A stretch of 64,000 nt of DNA, taken from NCBI GenBank assembly GCA_030690415.1, contig JAUYGZ010000012.1:19325-83324 (forward strand). The letters run 5' to 3'. The position numbers and the translations under genes are program-made. Shown here one piece after another: positions 15,958 through 54,506 of this stretch. Position 1 is the first letter of the stretch, and each line of letters begins with the position of its first letter. The DNA comes from a bacterium. GTDB taxonomy: Bacteria; Patescibacteriota; Gracilibacteria; JAUYGZ01. Below the pieces are notes generated by a model that was not told the DNA's origin, searched no databases, and saw only the letters and a list, made by a program, of their open reading frames with translations.

Positions 15958-18063
15958 ATGCACTACTATCACACCCTTATCAAGCACCTCCCCCAGCTGC
16001 TGACCTACCAGTCGGAAAGGGCCATTCCGATTGGCAGCCTCATCAGAACCCAACTGGGCAGAAAAGCAGTGAATGGAATCGTCATCCAGGAAATCACCCA
16101 ACCGGAGTTTGAATGCGTCTCTATCGACGAGATCCTCATACTGGAAGCCCTCACCACACTGCACCTGGATCTCTGCAAGTGGATGAGTTCGTACTATTTT
16201 GCCAGTTTAAGTCGATGCATTCAGCTCTTCCTGCCAAGTCCCATCTGGAATCAAAAGCCAAAACTCAAGCTCGATGAACAGAAAATCCCACTCAATCCGG
16301 ATAACACCCATCCCAGCAAAGCTCACCACGATCAGCCACTCACCACGGAACAGCAGCAAGTCCTTTCGATCATATTTCCTAATAATCCTACACAACCCCA
16401 CGCAAACCCTCCCATCTTTCCTCTCCTAACTCCGAACTCCGAACTCCGAACTTCCCCCACCCACTTCCTCCTCCATGGCATCACCGGCTCCGGAAAAACA
16501 GAGATTTACCTCCAGTTGATCAAAAAAAGTATACAGAGAGGAAAACAAAGCCTACTTTTAGTCCCTGAAATAGCCCTTACTACAGAGCTCATCCAATCCT
16601 TCAGTGAACATTTCCCGAATCAAATCAGTATCATTCATTCAAAACGCAGCGATCGGGAACGGATCCAGTCCTGGCACAGAATCCATCAGGGACATACCAA
16701 ACTCATCCTAGGCTCTCGGTCCGCGCTTTTCACCCCATGGAAGGATCTGGATACCATTATTATGGATGAAGAACACGAGTGGACTTACAAACAGGAGTCC
16801 TCTCCCCGATACCATGCCAAAACGGTGGCAGAAAAAATCATGCAGTTGAGAGTTGAGAATTCAGAGTTCAGAGAAAAAGAGAAACCAATACTCTTGCTCG
16901 GTTCAGCTACTCCCTCCATCGAATCCTACTTTCAAGCCACAACTCTCAACTCTCTCCTCGAGCCAGAGCGACCTCGGAGCCGATGGCAACCCTCAACCCT
17001 TAACTATCAACTCCTCACCCTCACCCACCGCGCTAACAATTCAGCCCTCCCTACGGTCACCATCGTCGACCTTCGCGAGGAATACCAGAAAAAAAACTTC
17101 TCCATGTTTTCTGAGGCTCTGCAAGAAGCCATCAAACAGCGCCTCGAAAAAAAAGAACAAATCATCCTCTTTCTGAATAAACGAGGATCCTCCTCCTCTA
17201 TCACCTGTCGCGATTGCGGGTTTACTCCGAAGTGTGAAAACTGTGATATTTGTCTGACCTTTCACGCCAAGCTCAAGGACTTCCAGGACGGTGGACTCAT
17301 CTGTCACTACTGCGGAAGCTATCAGGAAAATCACAGGACCTGCCCCGAATGCCATTCAGCAGCAATCCGGCACCTCGGCACAGGAACCCAAAAGGCGGAA
17401 GAACAGCTCAAACAGCTCTTTCCTGAAGCACGCGTCCTGCGTGCCGACAAGGACACCACAGGAGGCAAGTCGGACTTCGAAGAAATCTATCACAAAATGA
17501 AAGACCAGAAAGCCGACATCCTCCTGGGTACCCAGATAATCGCCAAAGGTCTGGACCTTGAAAACATCACCCTTACGGGGATCCTAATCGCCGACATTGG
17601 GCTCCATATTCCGGATTTTCGAGCCAGTGAACATGTGTTTCAACTCCTGACTCAGGTCGCCGGCCGCAGCGGCCGCCACAAACCCGGAGAAGTCATCATT
17701 CAGACCTATCAACCCTATCACCCGGCTATAATGGCTGCAAAAGAACACGACTATGAAGGCTTTTATAAGAGAGAAATAGCCATTCGTGAACAACATTTGT
17801 ATTCACCGTTTTCAGAGTCAGTCAAGCTCATCTACGCCCACGAAAACGCTAAAAAAGCAGCTGACGAAGCCCTCAAGCTCTATGGTGAATGCTCCGATCT
17901 CAGAAAACACCGGGGAATAATAGTGGATTACTCCCCGAACTATATCCCCAAACTCTACGGTAAGTTCACCTGGAACATCCTCATCCGAGGCTCAGATCCC
18001 CGAAATCTGTTGACTCAATTATCTCTCCCTCCAGGCTGGAAGATTGATGTGGACCCTCGGTAA
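15958..18063 (+). CDS. priA: Primosomal replication-restart helicase PriA
   Basis: 701 aa. Walker A is GITGSGKTEIY, with a DEEHE box. Cys4-type zinc cluster CRDCGFTPKCENCDICLTFH...CHYCGSYQENHRTCPECHS. ATG at 15958. Confidence 0.93.
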   Translation: MHYYHTLIKHLPQLLTYQSERAIPIGSLIRTQLGRKAVNGIVIQEITQPEFECVSIDEILILEALTTLHLDLCKWMSSYYFASLSRCIQLFLPSPIWNQKPKLKLDEQKIPLNPDNTHPSKAHHDQPLTTEQQQVLSIIFPNNPTQPHANPPIFPLLTPNSELRTSPTHFLLHGITGSGKTEIYLQLIKKSIQRGKQSLLLVPEIALTTELIQSFSEHFPNQISIIHSKRSDRERIQSWHRIHQGHTKLILGSRSALFTPWKDLDTIIMDEEHEWTYKQESSPRYHAKTVAEKIMQLRVENSEFREKEKPILLLGSATPSIESYFQATTLNSLLEPERPRSRWQPSTLNYQLLTLTHRANNSALPTVTIVDLREEYQKKNFSMFSEALQEAIKQRLEKKEQIILFLNKRGSSSSITCRDCGFTPKCENCDICLTFHAKLKDFQDGGLICHYCGSYQENHRTCPECHSAAIRHLGTGTQKAEEQLKQLFPEARVLRADKDTTGGKSDFEEIYHKMKDQKADILLGTQIIAKGLDLENITLTGILIADIGLHIPDFRASEHVFQLLTQVAGRSGRHKPGEVIIQTYQPYHPAIMAAKEHDYEGFYKREIAIREQHLYSPFSESVKLIYAHENAKKAADEALKLYGECSDLRKHRGIIVDYSPNYIPKLYGKFTWNILIRGSDPRNLLTQLSLPPGWKIDVDPR
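16428..16452 (+). repeat. Heptanucleotide tandem repeat (aactccg x3 plus partial) inside priA
   Basis: aactccg aactccg aactccg aact read directly. Encodes part of the low-complexity insert PNSELRTSP. Confidence 0.8.
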
Positions 18064-22088: not shown

Positions 22089-22716
22089 GTTGACGGTCGA
22101 TAATCGTATCCAGATGGATCCCCAAATGCTCTCTAAGGGCCTCAATCGTGATGAGCTTGAGAGCATGCTTTTTTTTGAAAGCCAGCAAATCATCACCTCT
22201 CACCATCTCACCGTCTTCACGAATGATTTCACAAATAACCCCAACAGGAGTCAATCCTGCCAACTGCATCAATGCCACTGTGGCCTCCGTGTGTCCCTGG
22301 CGAGCAGCCAGTCCGCCGGTATCGGCAATAATAGGAAAGACATGTCCCGGGCTCACGAAATCCCCCTCCACCGAAAGATCATCAGCTAAAGCCCTCACAG
22401 TCCTGGCTCGATCTGCCGCGGATATCCCGGTAGTGATGCCTTCCCTCAGATCGCAAGAAACCGTAAATCGACAGTGATCTTTATCTTCATTTTTTCGAAG
22501 CATGAGAGGAAGACTGAGCTTCATCGCGCGATGCCTCTCAAGAGGCGTACAGACCAGTCCCCGAGCATGAGTGATCATAAAATTGATGTCTTCCGGCATA
22601 CAAAGCTCCGCCGACATGATGAGGTCTCCCTCGTTTTCGCGATCTTCACTATCAACAACAATGATCATTTTCCCCTGACGAATATCAGCTACCGCATCAT
22701 GGACAGAATCAAACAT
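22081..22716 (-). CDS. ribB: 3,4-dihydroxy-2-butanone 4-phosphate synthase
   Basis: Start moved to the ATG at 22716 (MFDSVHDAVADIRQGKMIIVVDSEDRENEGDL). The 21 upstream codons of the track ORF are an antisense reading of the KD repeat. Confidence 0.9.
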   Translation of the reverse strand: MFDSVHDAVADIRQGKMIIVVDSEDRENEGDLIMSAELCMPEDINFMITHARGLVCTPLERHRAMKLSLPLMLRKNEDKDHCRFTVSCDLREGITTGISAADRARTVRALADDLSVEGDFVSPGHVFPIIADTGGLAARQGHTEATVALMQLAGLTPVGVICEIIREDGEMVRGDDLLAFKKKHALKLITIEALREHLGIHLDTIIDRQHA

Positions 22717-22723
22717 AACAAGA

Positions 22724-22755
22724 AAGACTATAAAGACGATAAGGACTATAAAGAA
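22724..22755 (+). repeat. KD-repeat element copy (sense orientation aagactataaagacgataaggactataaagaa)
   Basis: Read directly between the ribB start and the ribH stop. It is an imperfect inverted partner of 22791..22833. Confidence 0.7.
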
Positions 22756-22775
22756 CCAAGGGGTGAGGAGATACT

Positions 22776-23312
22776 TCACATTTCATACTCATCATTATCA
22801 TCGTTATTATCTTTATCATCCTTATCATCCTTCATGAGATTCAGCCACTCCAAAGCCGTATAGGCCGCAAGTTTACCATGATTATGCTCACCAGAGCTCC
22901 TCTTCAGCCCCTCTTTGAGAGAATAAGGTGCCAATACTTCCATCACTACTGGAATATCCTCCTCCAACATAACCTCCATACACCCCCTGGCACATTCATT
23001 GGCCACCATCTCAAAGTGATAAGTATCACCCTTCACGATACACCCCAAGGCCACGATAACATCAAACATAGGCTCCTCCTGACCATCATCGTGAACAGCT
23101 ACCAGACAGGCAAGTCGCTGCGCCATAAGAGGAATTTCAAAGGCTCCAGGAACACGATGAACCTGCCACTGCAATCCTTCAATCCCTTCAAACACCCTCT
23201 CCAAACCGTTCAAAAGCCCATCAGAAATCTTCGGATGAAACTCTGAGAGAATAACCGCCACTCGGCCGGAAACACCTCTATACGATCGATCTGTTATTTT
23301 TTTTAACGCCAT
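22776..23312 (-). CDS. ribH: 6,7-dimethyl-8-ribityllumazine synthase with an acidic/KD-repeat C-terminal tail
   Basis: Core sequence RVAVILSEFHPKISDGLLNG...HRVPGAFEIPLMAQ...ALGCIVKGDTYHFEMVANE. Tail is NLMKDDKDDKDNNDDNDEYEM, encoded by the repeat element. Confidence 0.93.
   Translation of the reverse strand: MALKKITDRSYRGVSGRVAVILSEFHPKISDGLLNGLERVFEGIEGLQWQVHRVPGAFEIPLMAQRLACLVAVHDDGQEEPMFDVIVALGCIVKGDTYHFEMVANECARGCMEVMLEEDIPVVMEVLAPYSLKEGLKRSSGEHNHGKLAAYTALEWLNLMKDDKDDKDNNDDNDEYEM
22791..22833 (-). repeat. KD-repeat element copy forming the 3' end of ribH
   Basis: atcattatcatcgttattatctttatcatccttatcatccttc read directly. Shares the ATCATCCTTAT core with the copies at 49101, 49474, 49687 and 54071. 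Confidence 0.75.
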
Positions 23313-28150: not shown

Positions 28151-28201
28151 CCCCTACCCCCTACCCCCTACAACCTACCCCCTACAACCTAACTCCCCCC
28201 C
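28151..28201 (+). repeat. C-rich tandem repeat (ctaccccctacaac x2 plus partial units) forming the rpmA 5' leader
   Basis: Perfect 14-mers at 28161..28174 and 28175..28188, flanked by ccctacccc and ctaactccccccc. Ends at the rpmA ATG. Confidence 0.8.
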
Positions 28202-35854: not shown

Positions 35855-37198
35855 ATGCACCTCGACCTCAATGCCGAATTCAAAAAAGCCCTGAACCACA
35901 TGGAAGATGGAGACGGCCACCTCTTCATCACGGGAAGAGCTGGAACTGGTAAATCGAGTTTGCTGACCTATTTCCGTACGAATACTCTAAAGAATCTGGT
36001 AGTCCTGGCTCCCACGGGAGTGGCCGCACTAAATGTCCAGGGTCAAACGATCCATTCGTTTTTTGGATTCCCTCCTCAGATAAGCCCTGAGCAAGCCAGA
36101 AAAGAACATCCTTTCGATAAGATGAAAACTCTTATTCAAAAACTGGAGCTCATCATCATCGACGAAGCCTCCATGCTCAGAGCAGACCTTCTCGACTGCA
36201 TCGACCAAGCTCTCAGGAGATACGGAAACAAGGACAAACCCTTCGGAGGAAAACGACTCGTCCTCGTGGGAGACCTCTATCAGCTCCCTCCTGTGGTCAA
36301 CCGCGAAGAACAGAAAACCTTCTGCGAAACCTATACCAGCCCCTATTTTTTCGACGCCAAAGTCTTTTCAGAAACCATACTGCACATTCACGAGCTCAGC
36401 AAAATCTATCGACAAAACGAAGACGACTTTATCGAGCTTTTGAACCACGTCCGAGAGAACTCTGTCACCTGGGATCACATTCGAGATCTGAATCGAAGAA
36501 CAGACCCTGAATACATCAGCTATCGCAAAAACAATGAAATTACTTTGAGCACCACCAACGCCTCCGCCAATGAAATCAATAGGAAACAACTGAAAAACCT
36601 CAAGGGGAAAACCATACGACTAGAGGGGAAAACCAGCGGGGATTTTCAACGCCAGCTTCCTACCGAAGAGCAGCTCGAGCTGAAAGTCGGAGCACAGGTC
36701 ATGATGGTGAATAATGATTCCGCCAAACGTTGGGTCAACGGAAGCATGGGGACCATCACCGGTTTCGGATGGAATGAAGAAGAAGAGTGTAATGTCCTCC
36801 TGGTTACCCTTTCGGACGGAAAAAGAGCGGAGGTCCTGCCCTACACCTGGGAATCCAACCAATACTTTTTCGATCCCGAAAGCCAAAGCATCGAGATGGA
36901 GTCACTCGGGTCATTTACCCAGTACCCCATTCGCCTCGCCTGGGCCGTTACCATCCACAAAAGCCAGGGCAAAACCTTCGACAACGTCATCGTCGATATT
37001 GGCCGGGGAACCTTCGCACATGGTCAGGTCTACGTCGCCCTCAGCCGATGCAGCAGCTTCGAAGGACTGATCCTGAGAAAGCCCATAGAAAAAAAACATA
37101 TCTGGAGTGACCGAAGGATTCATCAGTTTATGACGACCAACAACCCTCGACTCTCGCCCCTAAAAATCACCAACCAGCAACCAGAAACCAGAAACTAG
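35855..37198 (+). CDS. Pif1/RecD-like SF1 DNA helicase
   Basis: Start at the ATG at 35855 (MHLDLNAEFKKAL). Walker A is GRAGTGKSSLL, with IIIDEASML, VGDLYQLPPV and a C-terminal TIHKSQGKTFDNVIV motif. Confidence 0.85.
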   Translation: MHLDLNAEFKKALNHMEDGDGHLFITGRAGTGKSSLLTYFRTNTLKNLVVLAPTGVAALNVQGQTIHSFFGFPPQISPEQARKEHPFDKMKTLIQKLELIIIDEASMLRADLLDCIDQALRRYGNKDKPFGGKRLVLVGDLYQLPPVVNREEQKTFCETYTSPYFFDAKVFSETILHIHELSKIYRQNEDDFIELLNHVRENSVTWDHIRDLNRRTDPEYISYRKNNEITLSTTNASANEINRKQLKNLKGKTIRLEGKTSGDFQRQLPTEEQLELKVGAQVMMVNNDSAKRWVNGSMGTITGFGWNEEEECNVLLVTLSDGKRAEVLPYTWESNQYFFDPESQSIEMESLGSFTQYPIRLAWAVTIHKSQGKTFDNVIVDIGRGTFAHGQVYVALSRCSSFEGLILRKPIEKKHIWSDRRIHQFMTTNNPRLSPLKITNQQPETRN

Positions 37199-37207
37199 CA
37201 ACCTGCC

Positions 37208-46213: not shown

Positions 46214-46384
46214 ACGCACACCATCGCAAACCATCGCAAACCAACGCATCCCCGTTCATACCCACGCAACCCACACGACCCTGCGCATACCCACAAAAAC
46301 AAAACATAAACATCCGTACGTAAAGACCATCCGTGAATGGTCCTTATTAATTATGGTAATATACAATTGTTCTATATCGTTCCA

Positions 46385-47170
46385 ATGTTTCCATCCGCAA
46401 CGTACCACCTTATCGACGAATCCCGATTCCGTGGAAAATACCGTATCGAATCGACGCGACTAAAACATTACGATTATTCATCGGATGGCGCGTATTTCAT
46501 CACCATCTGCGCGAAAAATATGGAACATTTTTTTGGGGAAATACGGGATGGGGAGATGCGATTATCAGAAATGGGGAAAATTGTTGCGCATGAATGGGAA
46601 CAGACAGAAATTATACGCAATTATATTATTTTGGATGAATGGGTGGTGATGCCGAATCATTTTCATGCCATCGTGATCATTAATAAACCAATAACCACAC
46701 CCACTCGAACGACACCATATATGTATACAACCACCACAAATATGCCTCCGACGGGACGTTTGGCCCCCGTAGAGACGCCCCGCCGGGGCGTCTCTACAAT
46801 ATATCGGGGCGTCTCTACACCGTATACAACACGCCGGGGCGTCATCACGAATGGGGGCGCATTTTCGAACACGGATACGGACAAAAACATGGATTACACC
46901 ACAGTTACCAATACGACCGTTTCACCATATAAAAATCCCAATCACAAACCCCAATGGAAACCAGGTTGTCTTGGCGCAATTATTAACCAATTTAAATCCA
47001 AATGTACTAAACTCATTCGCACTATATATCCCGATTTTTCGTGGCAATCCAGATTCCACGACCGCATCATCCGTGATGAGAACGCACTGAATCACATCCG
47101 CGAATACATCAGAAACAACCCCATGAATTGGGAAAATGATCGGAACAATACGAAAAATCTGAATATGTAA
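46385..47170 (+). CDS. REP-associated tyrosine transposase (RAYT; IS200/IS605 Y1 HUH family) with a REP-containing low-complexity insert
   Basis: Start at the ATG at 46385 (MFPSATYHLIDESRFRGKYRIESTRL). HUH motif in VVMPNHFHAIVI. C-terminal WQSRFHDRIIRDENALNHIREYIRNNPMNW carries the catalytic Tyr context YI..NP. The insert PVETPRRGVSTIYRGVSTPYTTRRGV is encoded by REP sequence. Confidence 0.85.
   Translation: MFPSATYHLIDESRFRGKYRIESTRLKHYDYSSDGAYFITICAKNMEHFFGEIRDGEMRLSEMGKIVAHEWEQTEIIRNYIILDEWVVMPNHFHAIVIINKPITTPTRTTPYMYTTTTNMPPTGRLAPVETPRRGVSTIYRGVSTPYTTRRGVITNGGAFSNTDTDKNMDYTTVTNTTVSPYKNPNHKPQWKPGCLGAIINQFKSKCTKLIRTIYPDFSWQSRFHDRIIRDENALNHIREYIRNNPMNWENDRNNTKNLNM
46769..46818. repeat. Intragenic REP palindrome (46769..46797) plus an extra half-site (46806..46818) inside the RAYT ORF
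   Basis: gtagagacgcccc-gcc-ggggcgtctctac followed by ggggcgtctctac, in frame in the transposase coding sequence. Confidence 0.85.
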
Positions 47171-48721: not shown

Positions 48722-50440
48722 TCACTCCAATATATGCCCTCCCAGGGAATCCAACTTTATATTCGTATAGTTTGCCGCGTCGGAGACAATCACATAGGCT
48801 GTCTCCACCATGTGCCGCAACTCAATCAAACCCTCACTCAAGGCTGACTGACTATACCGTCGCTCAACCTCTCTCCAGAGCTCACGCAGCTCATCCCGGG
48901 CTTCGAACAGCTGTTCCTTTCGACGAATAATTCCCACCTTCTCCCACATCACAGTCCGAATCCGAGACTTGAACTCCTTAATCTCCACCTCATCCACCTT
49001 CTTCGTCCCGAACGACTCCCATTCTTCCAGCAGTTCAAACGCCTTTTTTAAATCAAAACGCTTCATCCCTCGTTTCTCATTTGTAATTTGTCCCTTTCCA
49101 TCCTTCTTATAATCCTTATCGTCTTTATCGTCTTTATCGTCTTTATCCTCTTTATCATCCTTCTTCAAGGCTTCCGCTACCTTCACCCCCCAGGTCAGAC
49201 ACTCCAGCAAAGAAGTCGAAGCCAAACGATTCGCCCCGTGAACCCCTGTACAGGCCACCTCCCCTGCGGCAAACAAACCGGACAAATCAGTCCTTCCATC
49301 CAAATCAACCGCAATCCCCCCACAAAAAAAGTGTTCTGCCGGCACCACTGGTATGGGATCTCGAGTGATATCAATACCCTCTTCTAGACACCGCTGATAA
49401 ATGTCAGGAAACCGCTCCGGAATAGGGACGCTCCCCGTATAATACTCCGAAAGATTCAAAAACACAGTGCCTTCCTTATTCTCCTTATTCTCCTTATTCT
49501 CCTTATCATCCTTATCATCCTTATAGTCCTTCTTCATCTCCATCATCGCCCGGCACACCACCGACCGTGGCTCCAGGTCTTTCAACGGAAACCGATCCAT
49601 GAAATACTCGCCTTTTTGATTCATCAGCCTCGCCCCCTCCCCCCTCATCGACTCCGAGATCAAAAACAAGCGACCCCACTTCCCCCTATCATCCTTATCG
49701 TCCTTCCCCGGCCGCAAGGCCGTCGGGTGAAACTGCACAAACCTCGCGTTCAGGATTCGGACTCTGGCCCTATTCGCCGCCGCGATACCACTCCCGTAGG
49801 CATGCTCAGCATTGGTATGGTATTCATAAACCTGACCAATCCCCCCGGAACACAGTATCGTATGTTCGGCAAAAAACGGCTTCACCTCTTCTGTCTTCAG
49901 ATCGAAAAGATAGGCTCCAAGACAGCGATTCGGCTGGTACCGGAATTCATAACCCCTGCAATGGTGAACACTCGTGAGCAGATCCACGAGTACATGTCCG
50001 GCAAGAAATGTGACATGGGGACTTTTTTGAATCGCCCGAAACATCGCCTCCATAATGGTCTTCCCCGAATGATCTCCGGCGTGCAAAATCCTCGCCACAC
50101 TGTGAGCCGCCTCTTGAGTAAAGGAATCATCAAAAGAAACCCCTGCCCCCTCAATCAACACCTCATTCACCAAATCAACCCCTTCCCGAGCCAACTGCTC
50201 AATAGCAGGGAGATACCCAATTCCGGCGCCAGCCTTCACAATATCCTGAATCAAAAGTTCGGCCGTGTCTCCAGAGGAACGAGAGATAATTCCCCCTTGA
50301 GCCAATACCGAATTCGATCCCTCCAACACGGACTCATCCTTGGTCACCACCGTACAGGCAATCCCCAGCTGAGAAAGCCGATAGGCAACTGACAATCCCG
50401 CTAGTCCCGAGCCGATAATTAAAACAGGCGTTCGTTTCAT
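48722..50440 (-). CDS. nadB: L-aspartate oxidase with three in-frame Lys/Asp-rich repeat insertions
   Basis: VLIIGSGLAGLSVAYRL FAD fold, FHPTAL, ISESMRGEGARL and GGIAVD...GLFAAGEVACTGVHGANRLASTSLLE motifs. Inserts are GKDDKDDRGKWG, KKDYKDDKDDKENKENKENKEG and KKDDKEDKDDKDDKDDKDYKKDGKG. Confidence 0.93.
   Translation of the reverse strand: MKRTPVLIIGSGLAGLSVAYRLSQLGIACTVVTKDESVLEGSNSVLAQGGIISRSSGDTAELLIQDIVKAGAGIGYLPAIEQLAREGVDLVNEVLIEGAGVSFDDSFTQEAAHSVARILHAGDHSGKTIMEAMFRAIQKSPHVTFLAGHVLVDLLTSVHHCRGYEFRYQPNRCLGAYLFDLKTEEVKPFFAEHTILCSGGIGQVYEYHTNAEHAYGSGIAAANRARVRILNARFVQFHPTALRPGKDDKDDRGKWGRLFLISESMRGEGARLMNQKGEYFMDRFPLKDLEPRSVVCRAMMEMKKDYKDDKDDKENKENKENKEGTVFLNLSEYYTGSVPIPERFPDIYQRCLEEGIDITRDPIPVVPAEHFFCGGIAVDLDGRTDLSGLFAAGEVACTGVHGANRLASTSLLECLTWGVKVAEALKKDDKEDKDDKDDKDDKDYKKDGKGQITNEKRGMKRFDLKKAFELLEEWESFGTKKVDEVEIKEFKSRIRTVMWEKVGIIRRKEQLFEARDELRELWREVERRYSQSALSEGLIELRHMVETAYVIVSDAANYTNIKLDSLGGHILE
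49101..49166 (-). repeat. KD-repeat insertion 1 in nadB (9-nt tandem atcgtcttt x3 plus 2 variant units)
   Basis: Units at 49118, 49127 and 49136 are perfect; 49145 and 49154 are variants. Encodes KKDDKEDKDDKDDKDDKDYKKD. Confidence 0.85.
49474..49535 (-). repeat. KD-repeat insertion 2 in nadB (9-nt tandem ccttattct x3, ccttatcat x2, ccttatagt)
   Basis: Read directly. Encodes KDYKDDKDDKENKENKENKE. Confidence 0.85.
49687..49709 (-). repeat. KD-repeat insertion 3 in nadB (tatcatccttatcgtccttcccc)
   Basis: Same core and the same ccttcccc end as the intergenic copy at 54071..54115. Encodes GKDDKDDR. Confidence 0.75.
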
Positions 50441-54021: not shown

Positions 54022-54070
54022 TCCGCTTCATTTTTTTATTTTCTATTTTTTTGTTTCCTATTTCCAGTCT

Positions 54071-54115
54071 TCATAATCATCCTTATAGTCATTATAGTCC
54101 TTATCATCCTTCCCC
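54071..54115. repeat. KD-repeat element copy, intergenic, in the hpf 5' region
   Basis: tcataatcatccttatagtcattatagtccttatcatccttcccc read directly, ending 8 nt before the hpf ATG. Confidence 0.75.
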
Positions 54116-54122
54116 ATTTCCC

Positions 54123-54506
54123 ATGAATCTCCGATTCCACTTCAAAAACACCACGGAAGCTCTCAAAGAAGACCTCAAACTCTACGCCGAAAAACGCTTC
54201 GAACACCTGGAACGCTTCCTGTCCAGCTATCAGGAAGACAACAAAATCCTCACCATCGATATCGAACATCATGAACGACATGAATCCTACGAAGTGAAAT
54301 CAACGCTTCAGATTGGCGGAAAAGTGCTGCATCACACTGAAATGACCCATGTTCCCAAAGAAGCCATTGACAAGGCTGAAGCCAACCTGATCCGACAAGC
54401 CAAAAAACACATCGAGCACATAAGAGAAAAGGGAATCCCCCTAGAAAAAGTGAATAAAGAACTCCCTGAAGAAGAAGCCCCTCCGATGAGTTATGACAAT
54501 ATTTAG
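54123..54506 (+). CDS. hpf: Ribosome hibernation promoting factor / RaiA family
   Basis: Start at the ATG at 54123. Sequence MNLRFHFKNTTEALKEDLKLYAEKRFEHLERF...YEVKSTLQIGGKVLHHTEMTHVPKEAIDKAEANLIRQ matches the family. Confidence 0.85.
   Translation: MNLRFHFKNTTEALKEDLKLYAEKRFEHLERFLSSYQEDNKILTIDIEHHERHESYEVKSTLQIGGKVLHHTEMTHVPKEAIDKAEANLIRQAKKHIEHIREKGIPLEKVNKELPEEEAPPMSYDNI

Follow-up and report, generated by a model that had tools for sequence, protein, structure and literature searches.

We analyzed a stretch of 64,000 nucleotides (nt), here called the window, from contig JAUYGZ010000012.1 of a metagenome-derived Gracilibacteria genome (G000; 1.45 Mb, 30 contigs, ~47% GC), and found that in its nadB gene, which encodes L-aspartate oxidase, repeat DNA that in this genome lies mostly untranslated before start codons has been turned into segments of protein. 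Three in-frame blocks in nadB consist of tandem 9-nt units. We consider it probable that these blocks are passenger copies of a family of leader and intercistronic 9-mer arrays that is homogenized at the DNA level, grows by slippage, and occasionally enters open reading frames (ORFs). An earlier note on this DNA, made from the sequence alone, had described the three blocks but missed the main habitat of the family, which is the end of 5′ leaders, often within hairpins that extend from a stop codon to the next start codon.

The nadB gene occupies positions 48722 to 50440 on the minus strand as an intact ORF of 572 amino acids (aa). Its product matches NadB entries of the PDB at E values of 1e-71 to 1e-73 (5KXJ and 1CHU, both at ~1e-72), and in an alignment with 21 orthologs the invariant columns and conserved motifs are kept; the closest NadB orthologs, one of which is labeled Candidatus Gracilibacteria, are 57 to 65% identical. 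An AlphaFold model (mean predicted local distance difference test [pLDDT] score of 84, predicted template modeling score of 0.87) was superposed on E. coli NadB (1KNP) with TM scores of 0.80/0.86, and low model confidence was found in the three inserts and in C-terminal residues 564 to 568. Because low confidence is limited to these parts and the remainder superposes on 1KNP, the enzyme looks intact and the blocks peripheral. The PDB matches and the superposition bear out the description of the host as an otherwise canonical L-aspartate oxidase.

All three blocks are read from the minus strand. Block 1 (GKDDKDDRG, two to three units, 49679 to 49705, pLDDT 66 to 69) stands directly after the HPTAL motif. 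Block 2 (KDYKDDKDDKENKENKENKEG, 49469 to 49531, pLDDT 46 to 61) comprises seven units, including three identical AAGGAGAAT units, and block 3 (KDDKEDKDDKDDKDDKDYKKD, 49100 to 49162, pLDDT 42 to 55) also comprises seven, including three identical AAAGACGAT units. These identical units, three apiece, are private to blocks 2 and 3, a pattern that fits local slippage. Tandem Repeats Finder reported period-9 arrays at 49116 to 49156 (4.6 copies, 96% matches), 49473 to 49535 (7 copies), and 49687 to 49705. The earlier note had given the encoded segments as KKDDKEDKDDKDDKDDKDYKKD, KDYKDDKDDKENKENKENKE, and GKDDKDDR, and its coordinates agree with ours to within a few bases.

In the ortholog alignment that the note had proposed as a check, blocks 1 and 2 proved to be unique: they are missing from all 21 aligned orthologs and from solved NadB structures. 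Block 2 corresponds to a 15-aa gap in the orthologs, and the Salmonella protein (5KXJ) has a 9-residue gap at site 1 and a 15-residue gap at site 2. The suggestion that the inserts are always multiples of 9 nt therefore holds at site 2 (15 aa, or 45 nt, compared to Salmonella and to close relatives) and at site 1 compared to Salmonella (9 aa), but fails at site 1 compared to the closest relatives, where the difference is 8 aa. Block 3 falls in the linker preceding the C-terminal helical domain, where the linker of relatives is unrelated and variable in length. Judging from the structural model, NadB seems to tolerate the blocks as passengers: they fall in segments at the periphery that are poorly ordered, and the enzyme is canonical elsewhere. 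They are missing in the closest sampled genus (G004, NadB 63% identical) and are later additions in the G000 lineage. The NadB ortholog of another relative (L017, G001:C9) carries its own, unrelated in-frame insert of ~50 aa (…EIGGLSKKSSFLDNARHQAAASLRFARSPSPKQPARSLRRARKKYFSDNSD…) between VPFD and LSFTQEAAH, and suggests that in-frame insertions into housekeeping genes may recur in the family of G001 and G000.

The unit of the family is (AAR GAY KAT)n, or (ATM RTC YTT)n on the opposite strand, in arrays of 18 to 72 nt; a single copy contains no palindrome. With up to two mismatches allowed, the window contains 11 occurrences of the 18-mer core, compared to 0.04 expected from 100 shuffles. A 23-mer version gave 115 overlapping matches in the source genome, 0 with the reversed pattern as a control, and 0 to 1 matches in each of 40 relatives, six of them from the same family, which settles the question of genome-wide over-representation in favor of the earlier note. 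The genome holds ~60 arrays, and we classified 62 loci relative to gene calls from a self-built codon-usage caller (1174 genes, 89% coding). About 13 of the 62 loci are read as KDD within a called gene and 45 arrays are not; in all, ~3/4 of the arrays are noncoding.

Within the unit, variability is limited to positions 3 (A/G), 6 (C/T), and 7 (G/T), and position 9 is T in 173 of 175 noncoding and 42 of 47 coding units. For the third-codon Asp of coding arrays the GAT:GAC ratio is 40:4, compared to 63:37 in the usage of the genome (P = 5.6e-5), whereas for the second-codon Asp it is 23:15, matching genome usage. Synonymous drift as the source of unit variability was ruled out, since position 9 is invariant while position 6 varies. 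An alternative code (UGA read as Gly, as in some Gracilibacteria) was also considered and is unneeded, since the standard code yields the 89% coding density and intact ORFs. Because most copies are noncoding, because the repeat is read in three frames, because coding and noncoding copies share invariant and variable positions, and because orthologs lack the nadB blocks, the data support a family defined at the level of DNA and not protein low complexity. The proposal of a spreading DNA repeat that is tolerated in frame, as opposed to convergent low complexity, is upheld by the same noncoding copies, three frames, and common unit positions.

Outside KDD-coding sequence, the arrays are oriented relative to start codons. 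In 26 of the 45 arrays not read as KDD, the end of the pyrimidine strand is followed at a distance of 3 to 11 nt (mode, 4) by an ATG that opens an ORF of 60 codons or more; the purine strand has that placement in only 4. The typical end is …TCCTT-CCCC-ATG, and the pyrimidine arrays occupy the last 30 to 60 nt of the 5′ leader. The downstream proteins have canonical N termini, which we read as those of the housekeeping proteins MurC, AspS, Pth, CarB, PurL, RpsG, RplK, RibB, HPF, Dut, FtsK, DnaE, RpiB, RecX, and others. Matches of array-downstream proteins to orthologs in relatives start at residue 1, which validates the start codons that follow the arrays.

For ~11 arrays, an inverted purine-strand array lies 30 to 80 nt upstream and often starts 2 to 3 nt past the stop codon of the previous gene or overlaps it; ~7 purine arrays begin 2 to 3 nt downstream of a stop codon. 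Since the inverted purine array begins at or just after the previous stop, a hairpin that reaches from stop to start can take in the entire spacer. Folding energies of the ~11 inverted pairs range from −30 to −53 kcal/mol, and the loops of different pairs are unrelated. The ribH-ribB junction of the window holds one such pair on the minus strand, folding at −30 kcal/mol (z = −2.2): a purine-strand array at 22788 to 22832 encodes the C-terminal tail of RibH (MKDDKDDKDNNDDNDEYEM*) and forms the 5′ arm, and a noncoding array at 22723 to 22767, pyrimidine in the mRNA sense, forms the 3′ arm and ends 6 nt before the ribB ATG at 22716. RibH of relatives ends where the array at 22788 to 22832 begins, so that in G000 the array adds a 19-residue tail. 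The true ribB start is the ATG at 22716, as in relatives; the longest-ORF start (GTG at 22779; 22717 to 22779, minus strand) would add a spurious hydrophobic N terminus, MKYLLTPWFFIVLIVFIVFLV, which is the leader array in the IIL frame. In the hpf leader, a plus-strand pyrimidine array (54067 to 54111) ends 11 nt before the ATG at 54123, and the G004 ortholog has a 7-mer array instead. The copies that the earlier note had seen at the ribH/ribB junction, in opposite orientations, and upstream of hpf are thus real.

The minority of copies that lie inside genes are translated in three frames, KDD, IIL, and SSL, in different genes. KDD hosts are NadB (three times), a linker of ribosomal protein S1, the tail of NusA as (KED)7, the tail of DnaK, an NrnA-like protein, a MutY-NUDIX loop, the RibH tail, and several giant proteins. 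The antisense IIL/IVL frame forms the hydrophobic signal-peptide core of two secreted proteins with SLH domains, MRKRLPLIIFIFLINFIVLPTAHA and MKKFFSQIILIVLIIFIVLPKASA (G000:C27:8253-9335 and C27:54805-57435), and the SSL frame is found in ComEC, as an inter-domain linker, and in a 2238-aa protein. By Pfam, the repeat-coded segments fall between domains, as linkers, or ahead of the first domain, as signal peptides. Two further open frames, RMI and HPY, were never seen in genes; their absence and the presence of a stop-containing frame fit a filter by protein tolerance. Among the repeats described here only the 9-mer can persist inside genes, because its length equals three codons and five of its frames are open.

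Comparison with G004 showed that the arrays keep their places while their units change. The G000 repeat type is missing in G004, which has 9-mer families of its own, of the AAGGGTNGT and ATACTCCTC types (87 matches in G004, none in G000). These have the same architecture as the G000 arrays, including CATGGGG edges, and they are found at orthologous positions in the trxB-like, Pth, RplK, and MurC leaders and at the orthologous post-stop site of C23:87031, beside a conserved C terminus. In the G004 ribH-ribB spacer, the purine arm lies past the RibH stop and the pyrimidine arm 5 nt before the ribB ATG, while the purine arm of G000 has become part of RibH; this junction is only ~15 nt long in G002 and has 7-mer arrays in G003. 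The rplK leader contains 9-nt-periodic YCCTWA in five of five genomes examined. Both genera also carry an array at the same residue of NusA (G000:C7:132007-133626 and L052, G004:C2), which is (AAGGAGGAT)7, or (KED)7, in G000 and (AAGGGTGAT)n, or (KGD)n, in G004. These comparisons show that the units switch together across coding and noncoding loci within a genome, which points to concerted evolution; such coordinated change favors either an exchange of sequence among loci or a constraint that they have in common.

Other evidence bears on how the arrays grow. Adjacent units are identical in 29 of 252 cases, compared to 11.8 ± 3.2 after shuffling, and because this exceeds expectation the arrays are seen to change length by local replication slippage. 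Words of two and three units are common to different loci above chance. At one end the arrays have a G-rich edge (RRGG), often (C)ATGGGG, whose CAT is the host start codon read on the opposite strand; at the other end stands a partial unit, AAGGA. No recent copy-and-paste of entire arrays was seen, since no word of four or more units is common to two loci and exact matches between loci reach 34 nt at most.

Whether the arrays are moved as elements is a separate matter. The earlier note had favored a mobile inserting element, and a nonautonomous one, resembling miniature inverted-repeat transposable elements or the Rickettsia palindromic elements (RPEs) and transposed into genes and spacers by an enzyme acting in trans, would account for ~60 dispersed, genome-specific copies in both orientations and in coding and noncoding sequence, for the recurrent G-rich edge (C)ATGGGG-AAGGA, and for an IS200-like ORF at 46337 to 47170 in the window. 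We regard this as improbable. Beyond the G-rich edge, the flanks of the arrays have no terminal inverted repeats, target-site duplication, or conserved nonrepeat body; no identical copies exceed the 34-nt match; and many arrays must be old and not newly inserted, because the orthologous positions are occupied in a different genus. Profile searches of the whole genome found no match to RVT_1 (reverse transcriptase) or Y1_Tnp (PF01797), and the window ORF scored 20 bits compared to the Pfam cutoff of 23, so that no dedicated mobilizing enzyme was found. A mobile element is thus unproven, and slippage with exchange between loci is more likely. An independent origin in place, through selection on the YCCTWA leader motif and local slippage, with coding arrays grown from chance AAG/GAT-rich seeds and no transfer between loci, strikes us as unlikely but less so than mobility. 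It draws on the excess of identical adjacent units, the private KEN variant present three times in nadB block 2, a peak of YCCTWA at −18 to −15 even in array-free genes, and the K-K-G residues of relatives at site 1, which from the residues, and not from codons, could be a AAGAAGGG-type seed. It leaves unexplained that coding and leader arrays agree in their invariant position 9 and in which positions vary, that the NusA coding array switches its unit in step with the genome-wide family, and that two genomes share no unit types at orthologous loci.

Explanations that place function in nadB itself, or in its protein, fare worse. The blocks might be functional cis elements of the mRNA (pause sites, protein-binding sites, or partners of leader arrays) that regulate NAD synthesis; there are three copies in one gene, the 3′ end of nadA touches the leader array of a downstream M16-peptidase-like gene (C6:14147), and the purine strand repeats AAGGAUGAU, which we take to resemble Shine-Dalgarno (SD) and CsrA-type GGA motifs. 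We give this little credence, since nadB contains no partner pyrimidine arm, the anti-SD appears unused in the lineage, and the other host genes are functionally unrelated. Selection at the protein level for flexible K/D-rich segments, with DNA likeness as a by-product of codon usage, would fit the location of coding copies in tails, linkers, and loops and the charged disordered regions of many hosts (NusA, DnaK, and S1 tails). We hold it to be the least credible explanation of all, largely refuted already by the noncoding and alternative-frame copies: ~3/4 of the arrays encode nothing, some coding copies read IIL or SSL, one particular position deviates from the codon usage of the genome, and the nadB blocks are missing in orthologs.

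Several points weigh against the passenger reading that we prefer. The lack of any common four-unit word, with exact inter-locus matches ending at 34 nt, limits the case for exchange between loci, and a gapped flank pattern gave 0 matches against metagenome contigs. In place of exchange, selection that constrains the motif alike at all loci could account for the concerted evolution, and the comparison of relatives covers few orthologous loci and essentially one sister genus, G004. Leader function and the coupling hairpin rest on geometry, and the ribH-ribB z-score of −2.2 is modest. At close evolutionary distance there is no pair of empty and filled sites that would show how the internal copies arose, since the nearest NadB is only ~60 to 65% identical. 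The gene caller, finally, is crude.

With these reservations, we propose the following mechanism. The normal site of the family is noncoding, with the G-poor pyrimidine strand as the start-proximal part of the 5′ leader of at least 26 housekeeping genes. What keeps the unit uniform within a genome may be ectopic gene conversion between arrays, or template switching, and not a transposase. Arrays could enter ORFs by two routes, either when a shift of start or stop codon absorbs a boundary array, as in the RibH tail and the two signal peptides, or when an array is seeded internally, as in nadB, MutY, and ComEC. A copy would be retained only if it preserves the reading frame and adds an acceptable peptide at a site that can accommodate it, and the nadB blocks would be passengers in this sense; the tolerated peptides would be KDD in loops, linkers, and tails, IIL in signal peptides, and SSL in the ComEC linker and the 2238-aa protein. 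Leader arrays may serve as an unstructured, G-free landing pad for ribosomes in a lineage without SD signals, and the hairpin form may provide translational coupling through unwinding by the ribosome, comparable to an RNA-unfolding model (PMC12548453).

The context of translation initiation in the source genome is relevant to this proposal. Over the 20 nt upstream of starts, G falls to a frequency of ~0.11; there is a depletion of SD-like words, and an anti-SD energy profile upstream of starts showed no trough. The genome thus shows no SD signal, in agreement with the listing of Peregrinibacteria as SD-scarce (PMC10783764). Dozens of genes in G000 have G-free tandem arrays of 7- to 8-nt units ending ~0 to 27 nt from the start codon, with 7-mers such as CCACCTA, CTACAAC, AACCCTA, and CTCCGAA, among others, and 8-mers such as TTCCTCGT; examples in the window are at 16423 to 16452, 28151 to 28191, and 37171 to 37203. 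The 8-mer family forms purine/pyrimidine inverted pairs (C7:60459/60507 and C27:38750/38793), and relatives too have start-abutting G-free arrays, with other units. Among 507 array-free genes, YCCTWA has a sharp peak at −18 to −15 from the ATG, with 22 of 61 occurrences in this 4-nt window, and an array at the common 4-nt spacing puts TCCTTA exactly at −18. TATAAT-like boxes in genes without arrays peak at −40 to −26, which implies leaders of ~20 nt. We considered whether the array units, which contain TAnnnT, are tandem −10 boxes for leaderless mRNAs; this is unlikely, as the 7- and 8-mer leader families lack TAnnnT, and it is also disfavored by the position of the TATAAT-like peak.

The 3′ region of the 16S rRNA is CCTCCTATTAAGGAGCTTAGCC (L001 3060-3100, G000:C3; it reads GGATTACCTCCTATTAAGGAGCTTAGCC, with the tail segment AUUAAGGAG). 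Four genera share the stretch that follows CCTCCT, and the spacer beyond it diverges. From the sequence of this tail, a 5-bp CUCCU/AGGAG hairpin could mask the anti-SD. Leaders compared with the extended tail (AUUAAGGAGCUUAG) showed an energy dip of ~0.3 kcal/mol at −21 to −18, which is the size of fluctuations seen with shuffled tails. We note that a second 16S copy in G004 (L079, G004:C22) has an ordinary …GGATCACCTCCTTTTTAAAGG end beside a run of N and is probably assembly contamination.

A wider reading, which we offer tentatively as possible but not probable, is that in a Gracilibacteria/Peregrinibacteria-like family the G-free 7- to 9-nt arrays are a functional start-proximal leader that replaces the SD, with the conserved CCUCCU-AUUA-AGGAG 16S tail potentially masking the anti-SD. 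The dominant 9-mer would be kept uniform at dozens of loci by inter-locus copying, as in satellite-like concerted evolution within a 1.4-Mb genome, and the same DNA would repeatedly become protein parts (NadB and MutY loops, linkers, C-terminal tails, and signal-peptide cores).

The earlier note knew of no described mobile repeat with such behavior, and precedents do exist. RPEs are described as dispersed repeats found between genes and in frame in housekeeping genes, at fold-compatible sites (Ogata et al. 2000; PMC10969869). Like RPEs, the array family is both intergenic and in frame in unrelated conserved genes and is missing in their orthologs (NadB, MutY-NUDIX, S1, ComEC). RPEs are palindromic, ~100 to 150 bp long, and have a family consensus and a conserved peptide, whereas the arrays are naked 9-nt tandem units of 18 to 72 nt, are read in three frames, and have their main niche abutting start codons. 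Mycobacterial interspersed repetitive units (MIRUs) have a unit size of 46 to 101 bp. MIRUs are described as short, often tandem repeats at intercistronic junctions and start codons of co-oriented genes, with a geometry that would preserve translational coupling (PMC12548453). The arrays also lie between stop and start of co-oriented genes, but their unit is 9 nt, far shorter than that of MIRUs, which have a small ORF of their own overlapping the host start; no ORF with a start codon spans the arrays in the mRNA sense, any coupling would run through hairpin unfolding, and array copies are also found inside genes.

Repetitive extragenic palindromic (REP) sequences and their doublets (REPINs), with REP-associated tyrosine transposases (RAYTs), are genome-specific short intergenic repeats that often form hairpins as inverted doublets. 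The ~11 array pairs are likewise intergenic inverted doublets that fold into hairpins, but no RAYT was detected in the genome, the arms are tandem arrays and not imperfect palindromes, and the loops are unrelated between copies. The array family thus fails the defining structural features of RPEs, MIRUs, and REP/RAYT systems. Low-complexity inserts derived by slippage, such as the Asn-rich ones of Plasmodium, and contingency loci offer hydrophilic surface-loop repeats whose unit number varies by slippage. The arrays resemble them in having hydrophilic repeats with slipping unit number in surface loops of housekeeping proteins; unlike such inserts, which belong to the codon or protein level within genes, the arrays are mainly noncoding, strand-oriented to starts, and concerted across loci. 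SD-independent, G-poor repeated leaders include the (CAA)n of tobacco mosaic virus omega and pyrimidine-rich leaders bound by S1. In contrast to these, the arrays form genome-specific families and are also found in hairpins with an upstream complement, and their leader function is putative.

If correct, the passenger reading describes a route from noncoding repeat DNA to protein sequence in a streamlined bacterium, in which one 9-mer serves as leader element, charged loop, linker, and signal-peptide core. It would also mean that an SD-scarce lineage of the candidate phyla has an undescribed leader architecture of start-abutting G-free arrays and stop-to-start hairpins, and it would provide a bacterial case of concerted evolution of a dispersed short repeat, even within the conserved gene for NusA, which makes the homogenizing mechanism a testable question. 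It would also be a caution in annotating these genomes that a K/D-rich insert or a hydrophobic N-terminal extension can stem from the repeat, as the spurious N terminus of RibB does.

We made one further observation in the window. The plus-strand ORF at 46337 to 47170 contains an HUH-like motif, besides its subthreshold IS200/Y1_Tnp match, and is broken by a T/P/R-rich low-complexity stretch; G-poor tandem repeats of a 10-mer and a 9-mer precede it (46215 to 46294). It is probably a degenerate transposase, unlinked to the 9-mer family.

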